Positions 1 through 14,847 of a stretch of DNA of 64,000 nt are shown piece after piece. The notes beneath the pieces are model-generated. The model was not told the origin of the DNA, made no database searches, and was given only the letters and a program-made list of their open reading frames with translations. Both the position numbers and the translations under genes were made by a program. Each line of letters starts with the position of its first letter. Position 1 is the first letter of the stretch. This DNA comes from Candidatus Krumholzibacteriia bacterium (GTDB lineage: Bacteria > Krumholzibacteriota > Krumholzibacteriia > Krumholzibacteriales > Krumholzibacteriaceae): the NCBI GenBank assembly GCA_963836185.1, contig CAWIIQ010000001.1, positions 512,001 to 576,000 of the forward strand. The letters are read 5' to 3'.

Positions 1-370
1 GCTGACGGCGCGATTCGATCGTTGTCTCTATAGCCTCGAGCATGGTCTTCAGCGGCAGACTCGAGTACAGGACCACATCGGCGCCCTGCGCGACCAGGTT
101 TGCGTTCTCTTCCTGGGATCTGCTGTCATGGAGAATGATCGTCGTGGGATTTTCGGGCAGATCGTTCAGCATCGCAATCGATGATTCTATCGGATTCGGC
201 ATCAGCGAGGAGCTGATTATCACTATATCGCCATTGGTACGTATCGCTTTCTGGAACGGATTCTTCAGGTGCCAGAAGCTTTCAACGGTCAAGTCATGCC
301 CCGACAGGTGCTTCCGTATCTTCTTGTCGAGCTCTTCGGTCTTGACGGCGATTACTACTCTCAGCAGCAT
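1..370 (-). CDS. Partial regulator with an atypical receiver-like N-terminal domain, probably a sigma54-dependent (NtrC/Fis-type) activator; runs off the window edge
   Basis: Not in the ORF track. Manual translation from ATG at 370 (RBS GAAAGGAG) gives MLLRVVIAVKTEELDKKIRKHLSGHDLTVESF...GDIVIISSSLMPNP...PTTIILHDSRSQEENANLVAQGADVVLYSSLPLKTMLEAIETTIESRR, a REC-like alpha/beta pattern. It is divergent from a -24/-12 motif. No AAA+ domain is visible inside the window. Confidence 0.6.
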   Translation of the reverse strand, partial: MLLRVVIAVKTEELDKKIRKHLSGHDLTVESFWHLKNPFQKAIRTNGDIVIISSSLMPNPIESSIAMLNDLPENPTTIILHDSRSQEENANLVAQGADVVLYSSLPLKTMLEAIETTIESRRQ

Positions 371-656: not shown

Positions 657-672
657 TGGCTTGTAATATGCG
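657..672 (+). promoter_or_regulatory. Candidate sigma54 (-24/-12) promoter
   Basis: TGGCTTGTAATATGCG has GG(658-659)-N10-GC(670-671) spacing and lies upstream of the 766-5015 operon. Confidence 0.55.
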
Positions 673-765
673 TATACCCCGAATCGATCGTACAATCCGC
701 AAGATGGACCCGCGTTTCATATGCGGCGAGGCATTCAGAACGGAAAGGAACAGAGATAGACGGTT

Positions 766-984
766 ATGGATAGCTTATCAAGAAGGCCTGATGATTCCGA
801 TGATCTCGATTTCGGGGATGACTGGTCTGATGATGATTTCATCGATCCAGACGACATTCCACTGCTTCCCACCAAGGAACAGCGCGAACTGGACGAATAT
901 CTCGAGAGAAAAGAGAAAAAGCGCAAGCTTAAGAAAAGGCGCAAGGAGAAACATGACAGACATCGCGATGGCTGGGATGACTGA
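766..984 (+). CDS. 72-aa highly charged small protein (Asp-rich N-half, Lys/Arg-rich C-half, ends DGWDD)
   Basis: ORF with genome-like codon usage and strongly biased composition. First ORF after the putative sigma54 promoter. RBS is weak. Confidence 0.6.
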   Translation: MDSLSRRPDDSDDLDFGDDWSDDDFIDPDDIPLLPTKEQRELDEYLERKEKKRKLKKRRKEKHDRHRDGWDD

Positions 985-1051
985 AGCAACGGATGTCCGG
1001 GATTCAGTCTCTGAGCCTCTTTCGTACATCGTGAAAGGAAATATCGATCCG

Positions 1052-1450
1052 ATGAAAAACGATGAAACCTGGTTCGGGCAGGGCCGGGAGGCCCCGGCCG
1101 ATGTCTGGGGCCTCGCGTCCAGCATAGACATCTACGGATGTGATCCGGATGCTATCAGGGACGCTGACCTGATAAGGAGATTTACCGCCGAGTTGTGTGA
1201 TCTCATCGAGATGAAGCGGTTCGGCGAGACACAGGTAGTCCACTTTGGTGAGGATGAGAAGGTCGCGGGGTACTCGATGGTCCAGCTGATAGAGACGTCG
1301 CTGATCTCAGCTCATTTCGCCAACCAGTCGAATGCCGTATATCTCGACGTGTTCAGCTGTAAATCCTACGACCCCGATACGGTGCGGGAGTTCGCGCGTA
1401 AATATTTCGGCGGGCAGCATACCATCATGAATGTCAACTACAGGCGCTAG
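1052..1450 (+). CDS. S-adenosylmethionine decarboxylase-like pyruvoyl proenzyme (SpeD/SpeH fold)
   Basis: IDIYGCD, GYSMVQLIETSLISAHF and YLDVFSCK motifs. Start placed at ATG 1052 after GAAAGGAA; the 656 start is an in-frame extension overlapping the 72-aa ORF. Substrate uncertain. Confidence 0.85.
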   Translation: MKNDETWFGQGREAPADVWGLASSIDIYGCDPDAIRDADLIRRFTAELCDLIEMKRFGETQVVHFGEDEKVAGYSMVQLIETSLISAHFANQSNAVYLDVFSCKSYDPDTVREFARKYFGGQHTIMNVNYRR

Positions 1451-1453
1451 GAA

Positions 1454-2419
1454 ATGAATATACGCACGAGCTGCGATCTCGAAGAAGCCGGCAGGGTCTG
1501 GCGTGAACTCTGGCCTGCCGAGGATGTCTTCGATTGCTGGGAAGTACGTGAATGCTTCCAGAAGAGCTTCGGCCGCCCGATTCATTTTATTATTGCAGAG
1601 TCAAACGGCAGACCCGCCGGTTTCATCGGACTCAGCTGGATAGATGAGGAGGGTTACTACGGACAGTTCCCCGGTGAGACATGGAGGGGCAGGACATGGT
1701 TCGAGCAGAACCGGATCCCAGCCAGCTCCGACATCGTGAGAATGATGCTCTGGGACGCCGCGCCCGGCGACACGAAGCTTCGCTATCTCGTCGCCGATTC
1801 CGGCGGGCTGCTTCCAGGAAGCACAGTCGATGAGACCGGATATATTTTCCGTCCGCCGCAGTACGGTTACGATTTCGAAAGATACTGGAATGCGTATTCC
1901 GGCAAATCGCGGAAGAAGATCGGTCGGGAGATCGAAGCTCTGGGAGACCTCACATACTCGTATGACAGAGTTGATTCAGGGGACATCGAGTGGATGTTCG
2001 ATACGAACAAGGCGAATTTCGGGGCCGATTCATACTTCGAAGATCCACGGTTTCTCGATGGTTTTGAGTCACTGATCTCGCTTTTATCAGAAAAAGGCAT
2101 GCTGCGTGTCTCAAAGGTAAGTCTGAAGGGCAGGCGAGCCGCCGTTGACGTAGGAGCAGTATGCGGGGGACGGTATACAGTGCTGGCGGGGGCCACCGAC
2201 CCGGAACTGCGAGGGGTCGCGAAAGCGATCAACCTTTTTCATATTAAATGGGGATGCCGGTTGCGGGTCGATCAGATCGACTTTCTTTGCGGGGATTTTG
2301 GATGGAAGAGACGCTTTCACCTCGAGCCGCGTCCCTTATTCCTGTCGACAAAGGCCGTTTCCGGGGCAGCAGTCGTGACTTCGGAAAAGAGAAAGGTCGA
2401 AAGTGTCATCGCATGTTGA
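1454..2419 (+). CDS. GNAT-family acyltransferase (Acetyltransf_6 / CelD-BcsL / Fem-like)
   Basis: SGKSRKKIGREI, GVAKAINLFHIKWGC and IDFLCGDFGWKRRF match the C-terminal signature of this double-GNAT family. Confidence 0.75.
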   Translation: MNIRTSCDLEEAGRVWRELWPAEDVFDCWEVRECFQKSFGRPIHFIIAESNGRPAGFIGLSWIDEEGYYGQFPGETWRGRTWFEQNRIPASSDIVRMMLWDAAPGDTKLRYLVADSGGLLPGSTVDETGYIFRPPQYGYDFERYWNAYSGKSRKKIGREIEALGDLTYSYDRVDSGDIEWMFDTNKANFGADSYFEDPRFLDGFESLISLLSEKGMLRVSKVSLKGRRAAVDVGAVCGGRYTVLAGATDPELRGVAKAINLFHIKWGCRLRVDQIDFLCGDFGWKRRFHLEPRPLFLSTKAVSGAAVVTSEKRKVESVIAC

Positions 2420-3674
2420 TCCGGTGATCGTAGTCGGGACTACAGCTGACTATGTCGAGAGGATCGGCGAGAGGATGCCGGAGAGAACCATATTTCTTTC
2501 CGACCTCGATATATATGCGGATTCGTTACGTTCCATGCCCGCGAGAGTATACCAGGTCTTCTCATCGCTCCGCGATCCGGACGAGTCATTCTCCAGACTG
2601 CGGAGATTCATGGATGATAAGGGGCTCAGCCCCGGAGGCGTAGCGTGCTTTGACTGCGAATCTCTTCTTCTCGCCGCCGATATCGCGCGGAGATTATCTC
2701 TGCCTTTTCCCACATGGGAAGCCGTGATGAACACTCGCGACAAGCTCATCTCGAGGAGGCTGTGGCACGAGAATGGGATCAAGTGCCCCAGGGCAATAAC
2801 GGCGCGTGACGAGGATGACGTGAGAGCTTTCATAGAGATAATGGACCGTGCCGTTGTCCTGAAACCGGCCACGCTCAGCGGAAGCGAGCTGACTTTCGTA
2901 TGTGAAAGGCCCGAAGACGCAGTCGAAGCGTTTCGTGTGATAAGAGACGGTCTTCGCCGGAGAGTGACCGACAAGACACTCAACAGGGACCGCATAGTCG
3001 ACGAGAACATTGTCTTATGTGAGGAATATATAGATGGGCACGAATACAGCTGCGATTTTATCAGTGACAAACATGAGACAAAGATCATAAGGACGGCCCG
3101 AAAGTATCTGATGGAAGAGGGACCCGCCGGAACAGCGCAGGCGTATGAAGTGCCGGGGATGTCGCGTGAAAAAGCGGACGCGATCGATCTCGCCGGACGT
3201 GTATCAAGAGCCGCCAGGGTGCTGGGGCTGGAGCGCTGCCAGGGGATGGCTGATTTCATCATGAGGGCTGGAGCGCCGTATTTTCTGGAGATAACACCGA
3301 GGCCCGGGGGCGATTGCCTGCCGCAGATAATAGAGCATAGCTGCGGCATGGATATGCTCGGGACACATATCGATTTCTCGGCAGGAAGAAAACCGCGGAT
3401 AGTTCCTGAGAAAGACTGGAAACATACCGTTGGACTCAGGATCCACGCGAAGAGGCGGGGGCGCCTGTCGGCGATCCGTCTCTGGGCCGACCGAGTCCGG
3501 CAGGAGATCCTGGAGACAGGATGGTACAGGGAACCGGGAGACAGGATCGGATTGCCGCCTGAAGACTACAGGACATGGGTCATAGGCCATGTGATCTTCA
3601 GGCCGCTTCAAGGAGTGGCCGTATCCGATCAGATCGAGGATCTGATGGAAGCGGTCGAGATCAGGATAGAGTAA
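2403..3674 (+). CDS. ATP-grasp ligase (L-amino-acid-ligase-like)
   Basis: RDKLISRRLW, VVLKPATLSGS, CEEYIDGHEYSCD and FLEITPRPGGD motifs, plus a LAL-type C-terminal region. Overlaps the GNAT stop. Confidence 0.85.
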   Translation: MSSHVDPVIVVGTTADYVERIGERMPERTIFLSDLDIYADSLRSMPARVYQVFSSLRDPDESFSRLRRFMDDKGLSPGGVACFDCESLLLAADIARRLSLPFPTWEAVMNTRDKLISRRLWHENGIKCPRAITARDEDDVRAFIEIMDRAVVLKPATLSGSELTFVCERPEDAVEAFRVIRDGLRRRVTDKTLNRDRIVDENIVLCEEYIDGHEYSCDFISDKHETKIIRTARKYLMEEGPAGTAQAYEVPGMSREKADAIDLAGRVSRAARVLGLERCQGMADFIMRAGAPYFLEITPRPGGDCLPQIIEHSCGMDMLGTHIDFSAGRKPRIVPEKDWKHTVGLRIHAKRRGRLSAIRLWADRVRQEILETGWYREPGDRIGLPPEDYRTWVIGHVIFRPLQGVAVSDQIEDLMEAVEIRIE

Positions 3675-3686
3675 GGGTATTCAGCG

Positions 3687-5015
3687 ATGGCGGAAGAAAA
3701 GAATATGCTCGAACGGGCGCGGCTGATCTTGAGGCAGGATGTCCCGCCGATGGATCAGGGGCGTATGGAAAGATTCGTGGGGTCGTGCGTTTCACAGGCG
3801 GATCTCTTTCTGGATCTGCGGGAAAAACACGGAGCGCCTCTTTACATCGTCGATCGCGGCGGACTGGTAAACGAGTTCGAAAGAATGCGGGAAGCGTTCA
3901 AAGTACTTCCGGGCGAGGTCGAAATATTCTATGCCCTGAAAAGCAACAGTATGCCCGAGATCTCGGATATCCTCGCCGGCGCCGGCGCCGGCCTCGATGT
4001 TTCGAGCGGAAAGGAACTGAGACTCGCGATAGAAGCGGGAGCGCGGTCGATAATATTCAGCGGACCGGGCAAGACGGATGACGAACTGGCCCTGGTGATC
4101 GATCATGCGGATCGTGTCACGCTGATGATAGACAGTTTCGGTGAGTTCGACCGGCTTGACCGGCTCACGCGGGAAAAAAGGAAAACGGTCAATGCAGGCG
4201 TACGGCTCACCGTGAATCCGACCGGTCTCTGGCGCAAGTTCGGGATCCCGCTCAAGGAGCTGGCCCGGTTTTTTGCCGGGGTTGACAGAAGCCCGTTCAT
4301 CCAGTTCGAGGGATTGCAGTTTCATACGAGCTGGAACCTTACCCCTGAAGCGCATATATCATTTATCGGTGAACTGGGCGCGGCTCTGAAATCCCTGCCC
4401 GATATGATCTCGAGGGAGATCAGCTTCATCGATCTTGGAGGGGGGTTCTGGCCCGAGCACGGCGAGTGGCTTCGCGCCGGCGGCACAGAACCCGGCAGGT
4501 TGCGTAACCTCCTGATGCCGGAAAGGCCCGACACCTCGTCCAGATACATCCTGGAGAGCGCGGATATCAGTGAGTTTGCCGTAGGGATCGCGTCAGCGCT
4601 GGATAAGTCGCTTCCATCGTCGATTAACTGCCGATTCTTCATCGAACCGGGGCGCTGGCTCTGCCATCAGAACATGCACATCCTTCTGACAGTCGTAGAT
4701 GTGAAGGCATCCGACATCGTGATAACAGATGCGGGCACTAATGCCATAGGGTGGGAAAGGTTCGAACACGACTATTTCCCCGTGATCAACCTGTCCGACC
4801 CGGATATCCGCGAGCATCCATGTCATGTCTTCGGATCGCTGTGCACTCCCCATGACGTATGGGGTTATTCGTATTTCGGCAGGGGGATCAGCAGGGGCGA
4901 TGTGCTTCTTATACCCTCGCAGGGAGCCTATACGTACAGCCTCAGGCAGGAATTCATCAAGCCTCTCCCCGCTAAAGTCGTCGTGCAGGGCCCGCTCGAT
5001 CTTCGCTGGTTGTGA
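3687..5015 (+). CDS. PLP-dependent fold-type III decarboxylase (LysA/ODC/CASDC family)
   Basis: FYALKSN (PLP lysine), FSGPGKT, KFGI, IDLGGGF, FIEPGRW, GSLCTPHD and GAYTYS motifs. Confidence 0.9.
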   Translation: MAEEKNMLERARLILRQDVPPMDQGRMERFVGSCVSQADLFLDLREKHGAPLYIVDRGGLVNEFERMREAFKVLPGEVEIFYALKSNSMPEISDILAGAGAGLDVSSGKELRLAIEAGARSIIFSGPGKTDDELALVIDHADRVTLMIDSFGEFDRLDRLTREKRKTVNAGVRLTVNPTGLWRKFGIPLKELARFFAGVDRSPFIQFEGLQFHTSWNLTPEAHISFIGELGAALKSLPDMISREISFIDLGGGFWPEHGEWLRAGGTEPGRLRNLLMPERPDTSSRYILESADISEFAVGIASALDKSLPSSINCRFFIEPGRWLCHQNMHILLTVVDVKASDIVITDAGTNAIGWERFEHDYFPVINLSDPDIREHPCHVFGSLCTPHDVWGYSYFGRGISRGDVLLIPSQGAYTYSLRQEFIKPLPAKVVVQGPLDLRWL

Positions 5016-5160: not shown

Positions 5161-6033
5161 ATGTTATTTTTTATAGGAGCTGCGGTCCTGTTCTTCTTCC
5201 TGATAGGCATCAGGATAGTCAGGCCCACTCACAGGGGGCTCGTCGAGAGGCTCGGAAAGTACAACCGCTTCGCTCAGCCGGGATTCCACTGGGTATTTCC
5301 CCTGATCGAGCGGATGATCAGGATCAACGTCACCGAACAGATGGTCGACGCCCAGCCGCAGGAGATCATCACAAACGACAACCTCAACGCGCGAGTCGAC
5401 GCCCAGGTATACTTCAAGGTCAAGAATGACGAAGAGAGCGTGAAGAGCTCGCAGTACAACGTCAACGACTACCAGTACCAGATAGTCAACCTCGCTCGCA
5501 CGACGCTTCGTAACATCATCGGTACGCTGACCCTCAAGTCGGCGAACAGCGAGCGCGACAAGATCAACGGCGAGCTGCTCACAACGCTTGCCAACGAGAC
5601 GAAGAACTGGGGTATGGAGATAGTCAGGACCGAGCTCAAGGAGATCGATCCTCCGAAGGATGTACAGGAGACGATGAACAAGGTCGTCAAGGCGGAGAAC
5701 GAGAAGATCGCAGCGCTTGATTACGCCAACGCGGTGGAGCGCCAGGCGGACGGAACGAAGCGCTCCGAGATCAAGAAGGCCGAGGGCATCAGGCAGGCAC
5801 GGATCCTCGCGGCCGAAGGAGAGGCCGAAGCGATCAGGCTCGTCAACGAGGCAGCGAACAAGTATTTCATCGGAAACGCGCAGATCCTAAGGAAGCTCGA
5901 GACGGTGGAGAACGCGCTGAAGAACAACGCGAAGATAGTCGTCCCTGCTGACTCGGAGCTGGTCAACGTCATCGGCGAGCTCGGCGGCGTCGTGCCGGTC
6001 GGAAGGAAGGGTGGCGCGGAGACGGAGGCGTAG
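5161..6033 (+). CDS. SPFH/Band 7 (stomatin/QmcA-like) membrane protein
   Basis: N-terminal TM, VERLGKY, QEIITNDN, WGMEIVRTELKEIDPP and AEGEAEAI coiled coil. RBS AAGGAGG. Confidence 0.93.
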   Translation: MLFFIGAAVLFFFLIGIRIVRPTHRGLVERLGKYNRFAQPGFHWVFPLIERMIRINVTEQMVDAQPQEIITNDNLNARVDAQVYFKVKNDEESVKSSQYNVNDYQYQIVNLARTTLRNIIGTLTLKSANSERDKINGELLTTLANETKNWGMEIVRTELKEIDPPKDVQETMNKVVKAENEKIAALDYANAVERQADGTKRSEIKKAEGIRQARILAAEGEAEAIRLVNEAANKYFIGNAQILRKLETVENALKNNAKIVVPADSELVNVIGELGGVVPVGRKGGAETEA

Positions 6034-6065: not shown

Positions 6066-6093
6066 AACGGGGGCGTTTTTCGCCCCCGTTTTT
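6066..6093 (+). terminator. Rho-independent terminator
   Basis: AACGGGGGCG-TTTTT-CGCCCCCGTT followed by T residues. Confidence 0.8.
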
Positions 6094-6178: not shown

Positions 6179-6679
6179 ATGATGACGGAAGAACACAATC
6201 ATTTCATCGAGACATGGGGCTCGATGGGGGTGCTCTGGGGGATCAACAGATCGATGGCGAGGATTCACGCATTCATCATGCTCTGCGAGGAGCCGGTCGA
6301 CCTCGAGACCGTATCCGAGGAGCTCAACATCAGCCGCGGCAACGCGAGCATGTCGCTAAAGGAGCTGAGGAACTGGGGAGTGATACACCGCGTCCATATC
6401 TCGGGCGACCGTCGCGACTTCTATATCGCCGAGCCTGACATCTGGAAGATGCTCTTCAGTATCGCGCGGGTCCGCAAGGAACGCGAATTCGATCCGGCCC
6501 TCGAGGCGCTTCGCGGCCTGCTATCCAACGCGGGGCTGGCGAAGGGGAGCGGAGTCTATACACGGATGAACGATCTGGAGAAATCGTGCAGCAAGTTTGA
6601 CAGGATCCTGATGAAGGCCCTTGGCAATGAGAAAAGGAGCAGGGTGATGCTCGACCTGCTTGCTGTCTACAAGGACTGA
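6179..6679 (+). CDS. GbsR/MarR-family transcriptional regulator
   Basis: FIETWGSMGVLWGINRSMARIHA...ISRGNASMSLKELRNWG...GDRRDFY is the GbsR-type signature. Confidence 0.9.
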   Translation: MMTEEHNHFIETWGSMGVLWGINRSMARIHAFIMLCEEPVDLETVSEELNISRGNASMSLKELRNWGVIHRVHISGDRRDFYIAEPDIWKMLFSIARVRKEREFDPALEALRGLLSNAGLAKGSGVYTRMNDLEKSCSKFDRILMKALGNEKRSRVMLDLLAVYKD

Positions 6680-6707: not shown

Positions 6708-8076
6708 TTATTTTACGGTCCTTTCCGAGATGTCCACGCGGCCGCTGTCATAGTGCCCGCGCAGAATCGTCGGTACCCCGTCATCGCCGACGACCACTTC
6801 GAGCCTGAAGAAGTCGAGCTCATCGAAACAGAACATCGTTTCTGAGATCGCGTACATCCTGAACTTCGGGCGCTCCTCGCGCTGGTAGTACAGCTGACCG
6901 TCCTCGAACAGGATATTGCGGGGCCCGTACTTCCCGGCATAGCTCTTCATCGTCTTTTCGTCGATCTTGAAAGGTTCGCGGATCGCTTCGTAGCGTTCGA
7001 GCGCCCAGCCGAGACTTTCCTTCAGTTCGGGGATCTCCGCTTCTTCGTATAGCTTCTTGAGAGCTTCGTACTTCGCTACTTCGAGCGCGTCCTGCTGCGG
7101 AACCTGGATGTGAGGCTCGATTCCGGTGCCTTCCCAGTTGGTCATCGTTATCGGATTGACCGCGCGTCCGAAGGGAACACCGAGCTTGACGCCGAGGTCG
7201 GGGAATACCACAGTCGTGGTCGGGTGCGCCCCTCCGCCGGTCGTCTCGCCGATTATCGTGGCCCGTTCGAGGTTCTTCATGTTGTAGGTGAATTCCTCCG
7301 CGCCGGAGAAGGTCCTCCTGGCGGTGAGAATGTAGAGCGGTTTGTCGGCGAGGCTGGGCCCCTCGATATGCGACTGGGTCCAGAACTGCTTTATCGTGTC
7401 GGCCTCGCGGATGTAGAAGTTGTTGAGATGGGTAGCCTCCTCGAAGAAGTAGCTCGAGATGAGCTGGACCATCGTCGGGCTGCCGCCGCCGTTCTCGCGC
7501 AGGTCGATGATCACCGCGTAGCAGTTGGCGAGGAAGTTCATCGCCGCTACCGCCGTCGCGCCGCCGTATTTGGCGTTCGGCGAAGCCGTTGAACTTGAGG
7601 TACCCGATGTTGTTTTCGAGCCGCTCGACCCTTTCGAATCCGAAATTCGAATATGCCGCACGCGCGATGCGCATCTCCCTGTCATCGTCGGTCGGCTCAT
7701 CCTGCCTGGCGATGCGGATATCTTCCTCGGTGGCGGGGAAGACCCACAGGTGCCGGTCATGGCTGATCTCCTCCATGTCCTCGGTCAATCTCCTGGTGAA
7801 GACGTCGAGATCGTCGAGGTCATCGTATTTGCCCTTCTTGAGGTTTTTGGACAGGGTCTTGCCCATCTTTTCGGCCGTCTCGGCGAAGATGTACGTCTTG
7901 TCGAGGTGGAACCGGACGCTGTCGATGATCGCGGCCTTCGTGTCCTTGTCGAGTTCCGCGGCATCGGCGCCGGAGGGAAGGAACACGAGGAATGTCGCGG
8001 CGAGCAGCACTGCCGCCAGCACGATTATTATGAGCGCCATTTTTAAAGTATTGTGATCACCGGTCTCTGTTTTCAT
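6708..8076 (-). CDS. Secreted S41-family peptidase, frameshifted near 7577
   Basis: The N-part has a signal peptide, HDRHL and NIGYLKFNGF. It continues in another frame as IIDLRENGGG, TFSGAEEFTY, IIGETTGGGAHP and WEGTGIEPH. Removing one base restores FADAKYGG. Confidence 0.85.
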
Positions 8077-13215: not shown

Positions 13216-14509
13216 CTAGAAAGCAAAGCCTATTCCGAATTCCCACTGGTCCATTTCCAGTTCTATCATCTGCTGGCCCGGTACCTCAAGAGGATTCGGT
13301 CCGGATACCGAGTTGCTGAACGCGCGGGTCACGACAAATGAGAGCTCCTTGTCCATGCCGACGTCCTTGCTGATACCGAACGAAAGATGCTGCTCGACGA
13401 CCCCGGGAGCGAGGATGTTAAACATCACTTCACTCTCAGGTATCGGCTGACCGCCGTAAGAGTAACCGCCCCTGAACATCCAGCCGCCGTTTGTCATGTA
13501 CCAGGCGCCCGTCTTGAATATCATCATGTCCTCCCACCCGAACCCGGCGCCGCTGTCGTTGCCGAGCTGCGCTTCCTGGAGATTGGGGAGGATGGGATTG
13601 GCGATAGACTTAACCTGGCTGTACAGTGATCTGCTGGACATCGAACGCCAGGCCCATGCCGGGGAATCCGAACGCGACGCCGGCGGTCCAGTTCGCCGGG
13701 ATGTCGAATCCGCCCTGCTCGGCGAAGAGGCCGGCGTAGTCATCGAATTTGTCCATGTAAGTCTTGGTGACTGGTATGAGGCGCCGAATGAGAGGTACCC
13801 GAGCCATTCGCCGAGGTATCCGACCTTCACGCCGTATCCGACCGCGCTGCTGCTCGCCGTTATTTGTGAGGTTGTCCGGATCTGACGAAAAGCCCATCTC
13901 ACCGAAAGCCTGCAGTCCTTTTGCCTCGAAGCTCTGCCATGCGAAGATCGGGGTGATGCCGATCCCGTGGCTGTTGGCGATGAGCACGGAGAATGTAGGG
14001 GCGACGAAGAGCTGCATGAGGTTGACGCCTGTCGGCGTCGTCTGGCCGAACATCCCGCCCGGATCGAAGGTCGCCGTGGGATAATCGGTGTTCATCCCGC
14101 CGTTGCCGTAGACTGCCAGGCCGAGGGCCATCGTCTCTTCATCATTCAGAAGCCAGTTCGCCGAGATCGTCGGTACGTAGAAGACAGGCGAATCGCTCTC
14201 GTATGTCCCGGGAGCGAGGCCGAATGTCCCGGGGTCCATCGAGGGATCGCCCGTTACAGTGTACCTGCGGCTCGGATTGAAGATCGACAGCGACAGGTCG
14301 TACTGCTTGCCGACGAATGCCATGCCGCCCGGGTTTGTGGCCGCTGCCATCGGGCCGAGGTAGAGCGCCGCGCCGGCTCCTGCGAGCGCCTTGTACTTCA
14401 CGCCGTAACCATGTGAGAAATAGCCGTTTGTGGCGGTTGCCGGGGCCGCGAGGGCGCCGAGCAGGAATACCGCGATGAGCTGCCCTGAGGATTGACATCG
14501 AGACTTCAT
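13216..14509 (-). CDS. Outer-membrane FadL/OmpP1/TodX-family transporter; frameshifts near 13857, 13769 and 13625
   Basis: TNGYFSHGYGVKYKALAGAG, ATNPGGM, YGNGGMNTDY, NILAPGVVEQH and a C-terminal Phe. Confidence 0.85.
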
Positions 14510-14847
14510 GAGGAATACCCCCCTGTAAAATGAAAGATCTCTATCAGGTAAAAGATCTGCATCGAATGAAATGACGGTATCAGATGCCTGGAGCCATATC
14601 AAACGAATGCCTGACAATATATATCGGAATAATAGTACCGGAATGATTATAAATCAACCGATTTGTACACATGGAATCAGGAGAATTGATTGGCAAATGA
14701 TGGGCGATAGGAGCATATTTATAGCAGGTAAGCAGAGGTCCTTTAAAGACAACTCAATCCCCACCGACCCCACCGGGTTTTTCTTTCCGGTGCGCTCGCC
14801 TGTGCGGCGGTCAGCCGGATACACATCTTATTGCAGGGGGTAAAGCG

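Follow-up and report, generated by a model that had tools for sequence, protein, structure and literature searches.

Organization of the locus

The window analyzed here is a 64,000-nucleotide stretch of the genome of a Candidatus Krumholzibacteriia bacterium (assembly GCA_963836185.1, contig CAWIIQ010000001.1, positions 512,001 to 576,000, forward strand). Near its left end lie four closely packed enzyme genes on the + strand, encoding a SpeD-like protein, a GNAT transferase, an ATP-grasp ligase and a pyridoxal 5'-phosphate (PLP)-dependent decarboxylase. A divergent regulator gene, a candidate sigma-54 promoter site and a small open reading frame (ORF) precede them. The original prediction, made from the nucleotide sequence, described a tightly coupled operon in which a pyruvoyl-dependent and a PLP-dependent decarboxylase are combined with two potential amide-forming enzymes. 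Re-derivation of the spacings from the ORFs of the window reproduced this coupling: the SpeD-like gene (1052..1450) and the GNAT gene (1454..2419) are separated by 3 bp, the GNAT and ATP-grasp (2403..3674) genes overlap by 17 bp, and the ATP-grasp gene is separated by 12 bp from the PLP enzyme gene (3687..5015). Pfam matches backed all four families (E-values of 2.7e-23 for AdoMet_dc, 6.2e-22 for Acetyltransf_6, 1.4e-11 for ATP-grasp_3 and 1.5e-23 for Orn_Arg_deC_N). The predicted gene set was refined in two points, as the pyruvoyl enzyme is predicted to be of the ornithine decarboxylase type and the modeled GNAT fold is that of tRNA-dependent aminoacyl transferases.

Conservation and distribution of the cassette

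Using the PLP enzyme as a query (exact peptide words of this one protein), we obtained 67 loci from species-representative genomes, among which kin are not independent. We excluded L068, a fragment located at the end of a contig, and analyzed the other 66 loci. All four genes were present in the same order in 54 of these loci, so the genes form the co-conserved unit that had been proposed. The remaining 12 comprised seven loci without the SpeD-like gene (one of them cut by a contig end), one without the ligase (L028), one cut upstream of the ligase and three with the PLP enzyme gene alone. The ligase gene adjoined the PLP enzyme gene in 62/66 loci. In a sample of 301 genomes from a second phylum, the query, a weak one by which a known carrier was missed, gave hits in 12 genomes, and the ligase gene was next door in all 12. 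The pairwise identities of the ligase and the PLP enzyme gave the highest correlation (0.79), and those involving the short SpeD-like gene the lowest (about 0.5). The ligase and the PLP enzyme are the core of the system. The GNAT and the ligase form a single 752-aa ORF in one Verrucomicrobiota assembly (L051:5776-8034).

The carriers are dozens of mostly anaerobic bacteria of several phyla, with record titles naming Thermodesulfobacteriota, Planctomycetota, Verrucomicrobiota, Zixiibacteriota and others. The presence of the cassette is patchy, with 10 carriers among 151 genomes of the window's phylum. In a quick gene tree, built from 36 of 63 rows chosen by hand plus four more, the phyla were intermixed and the window's own family was placed in more than one spot, a pattern that fits transfer of the cassette as a unit. 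A two-gene sister operon, composed of an ATP-grasp gene and a fold-III decarboxylase gene, was found in two relatives of the window's organism (L071:7235-9681 and L072:30-2668). In the complete genome of Desulfoluna limicola the cassette has decayed (L028:6138-9290): the SpeD-like protein has lost the cleavage Ser and the ligase gene is gone, while the activator, GNAT and PLP enzyme genes are kept.

The SpeD-like protein is a predicted ornithine decarboxylase

The SpeD-like frame is open from 656, the start given by the ORF caller, to 1450, and alternative starts are present at 953 and 977. We favored 1052, which is probably the true start, because this Met aligns in loci L002 and L003 and the homologues are about 130-145 aa long. 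In a study of SpeD homologues, one clade, SpeDC, derived from class 1b AdoMet decarboxylases, is shown to decarboxylate ornithine and to have Gln, Thr, Phe and Tyr as its diagnostic residues (PMC10407285). The window protein contains the cleavage Ser and the catalytic His and Cys (ETS-LISA-HF...DVFSC aligns with Fig. S5 of that study) and all four diagnostic residues, whose positions were inferred from the tested domains in the same figure. Counted by eye, 78 of 114 residues (68%) are identical to the tested Desulfotignum ornithine decarboxylase domain. This tested homologue argues strongly that the gene encodes the proenzyme of a SpeDC-type pyruvoyl-dependent L-ornithine decarboxylase, whose predicted substrate is L-ornithine and not AdoMet, Arg or Lys. 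The SpeDC signature was present in 53 of 55 SpeD-like neighbors; it is missing from the decayed copy in L028 and from a SpeD fusion that L056 carries outside the cassette. SpeDC is encoded inside the operon in 55/66 loci, at about 60-85% identity.

Profile counts in carrier genomes, which covered 50 of 65 genomes, showed that SpeE passes the cut-off in 11 of the 50. No stand-alone SpeE was found in the window's genome, which is 92.5% complete; SpeE-like matches occurred there only as domains of 743- and 1046-aa membrane proteins. Since SpeDC lies inside the operon in most loci while SpeE is found in so few carriers, putrescine is most simply explained as being made for the operon itself. An enzyme of this type needs no SpeE, in agreement with the earlier claim that the operon does not serve plain spermidine synthesis.

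In locus L056 the SpeD fusion belongs to a separate operon, which also encodes SpeE, a GNAT and an MprF-C-terminal-like protein (PF09924) (L056:1033-4185, - strand) and lies at a distance of about 4 kb from a PLP enzyme gene of the cassette type that stands alone. In this operon, as in the cassette, polyamine synthesis is paired with the fold of a tRNA-dependent transferase.

The PLP-dependent decarboxylase is distinct from LysA

The PLP enzyme has the alanine racemase fold (fold III), of which the catalytic residues (K85, H213, E320 and C386) are all invariant, and the Gly loop is present. It is the only fold-III enzyme in the window's genome, where DapF is also present, and its homologues are labeled 'diaminopimelate decarboxylase' in databases. 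With the LysA model TIGR01048 it scored 139.3 bits against a cut-off of 297.9, and 37 of the 50 carrier genomes contain a separate LysA. Because 39 of 41 relatives of the window's organism have DapF matches and only two have LysA over the cut-off, lacking LysA while keeping DapF is normal in this lineage. The enzyme is thus not the genome's sole true LysA, and the claim that the operon is not devoted to plain lysine synthesis holds. In two genomes of the same genus, a fold-III decarboxylase of another kind (LysA score of about 220 bits, under the cut-off) is encoded beside a PHP/polymerase-III-like gene (L075 and L076, in G004 and G001). In the window's genome, the match to the N-terminal domain of DapB is divided between two short frames (G000:C3:222292-222584), which points to a frameshift or an assembly error.

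Comparison of the enzyme profile with PDB gave FigC (1.7e-38), BtrK (1e-35) and SbnH as the best matches, followed by diaminopimelate decarboxylases, with small margins; identity to solved fold-III enzymes is in the range of about 20-25%. According to PMC7857480, substrate choice in this fold depends on the residue that follows the catalytic Cys and on a 3-10 helix, and the acid after the Cys binds the free side-chain amine in ornithine, arginine and diaminopimelate decarboxylases (section 8). The loop at the catalytic Cys is CTPHD in 63/63 sequences and resembles the loops CTPED of BtrK, CTPKD of SbnH and CMQHD of FigC, three enzymes whose substrates are conjugated amino acids. The amine-binding acid is therefore replaced by Thr387 (Thr in all 63), and in the HMMER alignment Trp356 takes the place of the specificity-helix Arg of diaminopimelate decarboxylases. 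Because of these two replacements, the likely substrate is a conjugate in which an amino acid is linked via its side chain, and not free ornithine, lysine, arginine or diaminopimelate. The specificity helix, W-E-R-F-E, contains the conserved acids E357 and E360 as well as R358. The two acids would suit a distal amine; the helix as a whole does not discriminate between gamma-Glu- or beta-Asp-putrescine and acyl-ornithine. The score with the NCBIfam FslC model was 66.9 bits against a cut-off of 500. With this score, and with neither a synthetase of the nonribosomal peptide synthetase (NRPS)-independent siderophore (NIS) type nor an acyl-carrier protein among the recurring neighbors, the enzyme appears to work like FigC, SbnH and BtrK while being an orthologue of none of them.

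The two potential amide-forming enzymes

The best annotated profile matches of the ATP-grasp ligase were L-amino-acid ligases (8e-25 to 3e-13), accompanied by a weak LAL_C2 match, which places it in the BacD/RizA/BL00235-like structural class; the uncharacterised Anaerococcus-type PDB entry 4dim, labeled GARS, outscored them. L-amino-acid ligases matched far better than D-Ala-D-Ala ligase or RimK/LysX, and the protein was far below all curated family cut-offs (for LysX, 15 bits against 276). Like BacD, RizA, BL00235 and DdaF, it combines an ATP-grasp core with a LAL-type C-terminal domain. Unlike the BacD-type ligases, it lacks the Glu of the FEE/FTE motif (FTE, E273 in BacD): in the sequence alignment the column is occupied by T, I, V or A in 60/60 ligases, and Arg and Lys residues are invariant instead (R230, K234, D284, E296 and R300 are each conserved in 60/60). 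As E273 of BacD is presumably the residue that holds the alpha-amine of the donor, we infer that the donor is activated away from its amine, for example at the side chain of Glu or Asp. The invariant R230 and K234 would suit a dicarboxylic donor. BtrJ, of the butirosin pathway, is an ATP-grasp ligase that joins Glu through its side chain.

The structure model of the GNAT protein had a predicted local distance difference test (pLDDT) score of 90. Among the Foldseek matches listed, the aminoacyl-tRNA-dependent enzymes Sbb17/Sba18 were at the top (1e-11), followed by FemX (3e-11) and MprF-type domains, and tandem GNATs using acetyl-CoA appeared from rank 29 (E-value 3e-7). These structural neighbors share 10-16% identity with the protein at a template modeling (TM) score of about 0.6; searches of PDB by sequence and by profile gave no significant match. 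A basic helix with K151, R153 and K154 opens the second domain (K151 in 59/60 and K154 in 58/60 sequences), and W284 (60/60) and K285 (59/60) lie near the C-terminus. In the part of PMC12945691 that deals with Fem-type enzymes, a basic tRNA-binding helix and a catalytic Lys are described, the latter being K305 in FemX and part of F328-K329 in DhpH-C. The cassette protein has the double-GNAT fold in common with Sbb17/Sba18, Orf11, DhpH-C and FemX; its basic helix and the aromatic-Lys pair W284-K285 may correspond to the features of FemX and DhpH-C, which they match by position only. A G-x-A sequence at 254-256 is compatible with acyl-CoA. On the basis of the modeled fold, the GNAT is likely an aminoacyl-tRNA-dependent transferase.

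Regulation and the first gene of the operon

Only the 5' part (1..370, - strand) of the divergent regulator gene is in the window; from its start at 370 the gene extends beyond the window edge. The whole gene (G000:C1:510952-512370) encodes a sigma-54 activator of 472 aa (Sigma54_activat, 3.1e-66) with an atypical receiver-like N-terminal domain, an AAA+ domain with an intact GAFTGA motif and a Fis helix-turn-helix. The receiver- and FleQ-like look-alikes of the N-terminal domain are a tentative lead. Ser is present in most of 23 aligned copies at the position that we take to be that of the phospho-acceptor Asp, and for this reason the activator may sense a ligand. The rpoN gene is present in the window's genome. 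Scored against the -24/-12 consensus, the GG-N10-GC site at 657..672 (+ strand) has 9 of 12 matches, a value reached by 11.5% of 200 shuffles and therefore weak alone. Its position is kept in all 35 activator-type loci: a forward match of at least 9/12 was found behind the activator in 35/35 and of at least 10/12 in 32/35, in comparison to 2/35 on the reverse strand and 3/13 in control stretches of TetR-type loci. An activator orthologue diverges from the cassette in 34/66 related loci, and in 14 loci a TetR gene is present instead. Scans for sigma-70 promoters and terminators gave counts no better than chance.

The first gene of the operon (766..984, + strand) is predicted to encode a 72-aa protein, acidic and then basic, without a Pfam family. 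It is conserved in L002, with 37 identical residues and 18, 17 and 31 differences at the first, second and third codon positions, and in L003. A charged small ORF occupies this first slot in 14/32 activator-type loci, as compared with 0/32 for the reverse strand, an expectation of 0.22 from shuffles and 0/16 among loci without the activator. LysW-like zinc ribbons fill the slot in four loci, all of the activator type, and are encoded 1-2 kb downstream in four more. Three of the four first-slot loci are in the window's clade (L009 is outside the tree), and three of the four also carry a peptidoglycan-binding gene. First-slot genes are optional, and since they are tied to activator-type loci, a regulatory role is suggested as much as a role as a substrate.

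LysW was considered as an obligatory carrier and ruled out: it passes the cut-off in 8/50 carrier genomes and was not found in the window's genome. In LysW/AmCP carrier pathways every cluster contains a carrier with a Glu tail and a LysX-type ligase, whereas the cassette has neither. The LysW-like proteins found here lack what we take to be the motif of the C-terminal Glu tail. A gene for a small peptidoglycan-binding protein with a hydrophobic N-terminus lies between the sigma-54 site and the cassette in L008 (L008:4476-4787; PG_binding_1, 1.8e-17), with look-alikes in L009 (L009:3262-3579) and L010 (L010:4450-4770).

Proposed pathway and alternative explanations

Our leading reading, still a tentative one, is that the operon builds a small intracellular amide-linked derivative of putrescine. 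SpeDC would turn L-ornithine into putrescine, a step strongly indicated by the tested homologue. The ligase would activate Glu or Asp at the carboxyl of its side chain and couple it there to putrescine, and the PLP enzyme would strip the free alpha-carboxyl in the manner of BtrK, giving 4-aminobutyryl- or beta-alanyl-putrescine, which are amide analogues of homospermidine or spermidine. Judging from its fold, the Fem-type enzyme would then place an amino acid from a charged tRNA on a terminal amine. The activator and the sigma-54 promoter, or the TetR gene in other lineages, would turn the operon on upon some signal. That the product belongs to the small molecules, whether the pathway begins with putrescine or with ornithine, seems fairly probable.

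No NIS synthetase, receptor or exporter was recognised among the recurring neighbor clusters within 8 kb of the cassette, which were read by eye, and no acyl-carrier protein, Mur ligase, racemase or transpeptidase was among the recurring neighbors. ABC ATPases of one cluster, which may not all be orthologous, lie near the cassette in 10 loci. Conservation of a transporter or a receptor next to the cassette was not established, and on this ground an intracellular product is favored, and a chelator or a secreted antibiotic is disfavored. The original prediction of an acylated or aminoacylated polyamine or small pseudopeptide therefore stands as regards a single unit serving neither plain spermidine nor lysine synthesis, but its suggestion of a chelator is disfavored.

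Several observations weigh against synthesis from putrescine by these four enzymes. Six loci lack SpeDC although they are otherwise intact and no contig end interrupts them. Among five SpeDC-less genomes examined, one encodes SpeDC elsewhere, another has no SpeD genes other than two of the canonical type beside SpeE, and three have no AdoMet_dc match; no fold-I ornithine decarboxylase passed the cut-off in any of the five, and no other putrescine source was found in G051 and G060. Foldseek comparison of the PLP enzyme model puts diaminopimelate decarboxylase first, with the subfamilies not separated. The substrate of FigC, the top PDB match by profile, is an acyl-ornithine, and H389 and R420/Q421 are placed where FigC binds citrate carboxylates. 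The PLP enzyme of the sister operon, about 35% identical to that of the window, has the loop C-D-P-x-D, and neither a GNAT nor a SpeD was found in the two genomes with this operon, which are 94-95% complete. Distant GNAT relatives, one of them from a Roizmanbacteria genome, had no cassette gene nearby in 15/15 loci of the one sub-branch covered by a metagenome scan, several of them on short contigs. The GNAT is the less fixed partner of the cassette, because of these relatives and because the sister operon lacks it. As for the ligase, the characterised L-amino-acid ligases known to us activate alpha-carboxyls.

Some of these points would be accommodated by a pathway that begins with ornithine, as in the synthesis of rhizoferrin in Francisella, although we regard it as rather doubtful. 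The ligase or the Fem-type enzyme would acylate the delta-amine of ornithine and the PLP enzyme would convert the product to N-acyl-putrescine, with SpeDC as an optional second entry that supplies free putrescine for a di-acylated product. This scheme agrees with the rank of FigC, which shares the His of C-x-x-H-D and whose R387/N389 lie beside the conserved R420/Q421, and it accounts for the losses of SpeDC and for the lone ligase-decarboxylase pair in G010 and G021. It leaves SpeDC redundant, however, in spite of its retention in most loci, the lead of FigC over BtrK is small, and the partners of a siderophore pathway (NIS synthetase, receptor or conserved exporter) do not recur. An ordinary pair of housekeeping neighbors, LysA for lysine and SpeD for spermidine, is highly improbable. 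The PLP enzyme is indeed the sole fold-III match in a genome with DapF, and its database labels agree with such a role; it nevertheless falls far short of the LysA cut-off, most carriers have LysA elsewhere, relatives with DapF mostly lack LysA, the cassette is patchily distributed, and SpeE-like sequence is confined to the two membrane proteins while the SpeDC residues are present.

The enzymes could instead modify a macromolecule, a real alternative that we also regard as rather doubtful. In a cell-wall stem peptide, bound diaminopimelate would be decarboxylated, putrescine attached to a Glu carboxyl and a branch derived from tRNA added; in another form the small acidic first-slot protein would be the target. 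FemX scores nearly as high as Sbb17/Sba18 with the GNAT model, the loss of both distal contacts of diaminopimelate decarboxylases also fits a peptide-bound substrate, and one sister GNAT (L087) follows genes that by eye appear to act on surface glycans. The peptidoglycan-binding gene between promoter and SpeDC in L008 and its look-alikes, the zinc ribbons in and near the first slot, and the C39-like peptidase adjoining the cassette in six loci point in the same direction. However, 18/32 activator-type and 16/16 other loci have no small charged ORF, LysW is rare among the carriers and its relatives here lack the presumed tail, cell-wall enzymes of the Mur ligase, racemase and transpeptidase types do not recur nearby, and the ligase is far closer to L-amino-acid ligases than to D-Ala-D-Ala ligase or RimK/LysX.

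Relation to known systems

All of the enzyme folds are known, and we classed the cassette as a variant of the NRPS-independent amide-bond biosynthetic clusters. The decarboxylation to a 4-aminobutyryl unit by a fold-III enzyme with a CTP-x-D loop, as described for BtrK in PMC7857480, is common to the butirosin BtrJ/BtrK pair and the proposed cassette pathway, but the cassette has no acyl-carrier protein among its recurring neighbors and no aminoglycoside genes. With the rhizoferrin enzymes FigA/FigC (FslA/FslC) and with SbnH of staphyloferrin B, as treated in the same source, it would share the logic of ligation followed by decarboxylation and a Cys loop without the amine-binding acid; it differs in having an ATP-grasp ligase instead of an NIS synthetase, its own source of putrescine and no recurring receptor or exporter. 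An NIS siderophore cluster has three hallmarks, an IucA/IucC synthetase, a receptor and an exporter, and none of them was recognised among the recurring neighbors. The SpeDC genes described in the accessible part of PMC10407285 are located beside SpeD/SpeE, CASDH/CASDC or HSS, whereas here SpeDC is accompanied by the GNAT, the ATP-grasp ligase and the fold-III decarboxylase. The cassette is a fourth pathway context for SpeDC. No description of this gene combination was found in the literature searched, whose coverage largely leaves out subscription journals.

A broader proposition, possible and on the doubtful side, is that a polyamine substitute is made in anaerobes of several phyla purely by amide chemistry, at the expense of ATP and charged tRNA and with no S-adenosylmethionine or NADPH. 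In another version, the same four enzymes would act under sigma-54 control on the cell wall or on a small acidic protein and convert it to a form that bears putrescine and aminoacyl branches. If true, either version would be a polyamine pathway without a described counterpart. The cassette is a soluble, self-contained unit of 4 kb whose members are mislabeled in databases as diaminopimelate decarboxylase, alanine racemase or AdoMet decarboxylase. Its presence in sulfate reducers, planctomycetes and other anaerobes of sediments points to an amine metabolite in these organisms, the small-molecule chemistry of which is little known.

Other neighboring genes

The C39-like peptidase gene adjoins the cassette in L012, L015, L024, L025, L033 and L047, and four of these six loci have no SpeDC in the operon. 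An SPFH/Band 7 gene follows the cassette in the window (5161-6033). It was considered as a further member of the operon and rejected, as it adjoins the PLP enzyme gene only in the closest relative, L002. Outside the cassette, this gene is followed by a hairpin terminator (6066-6090) and a GbsR/MarR-type regulator gene (6179-6679). Further downstream, a gene for a secreted peptidase-like protein on the - strand (6708-8076) appears to be split over the overlapping frames 6820-8076 and 6708-7760, and similar overlapping pieces are present at 13216-14617, possibly as a result of sequencing frameshifts.

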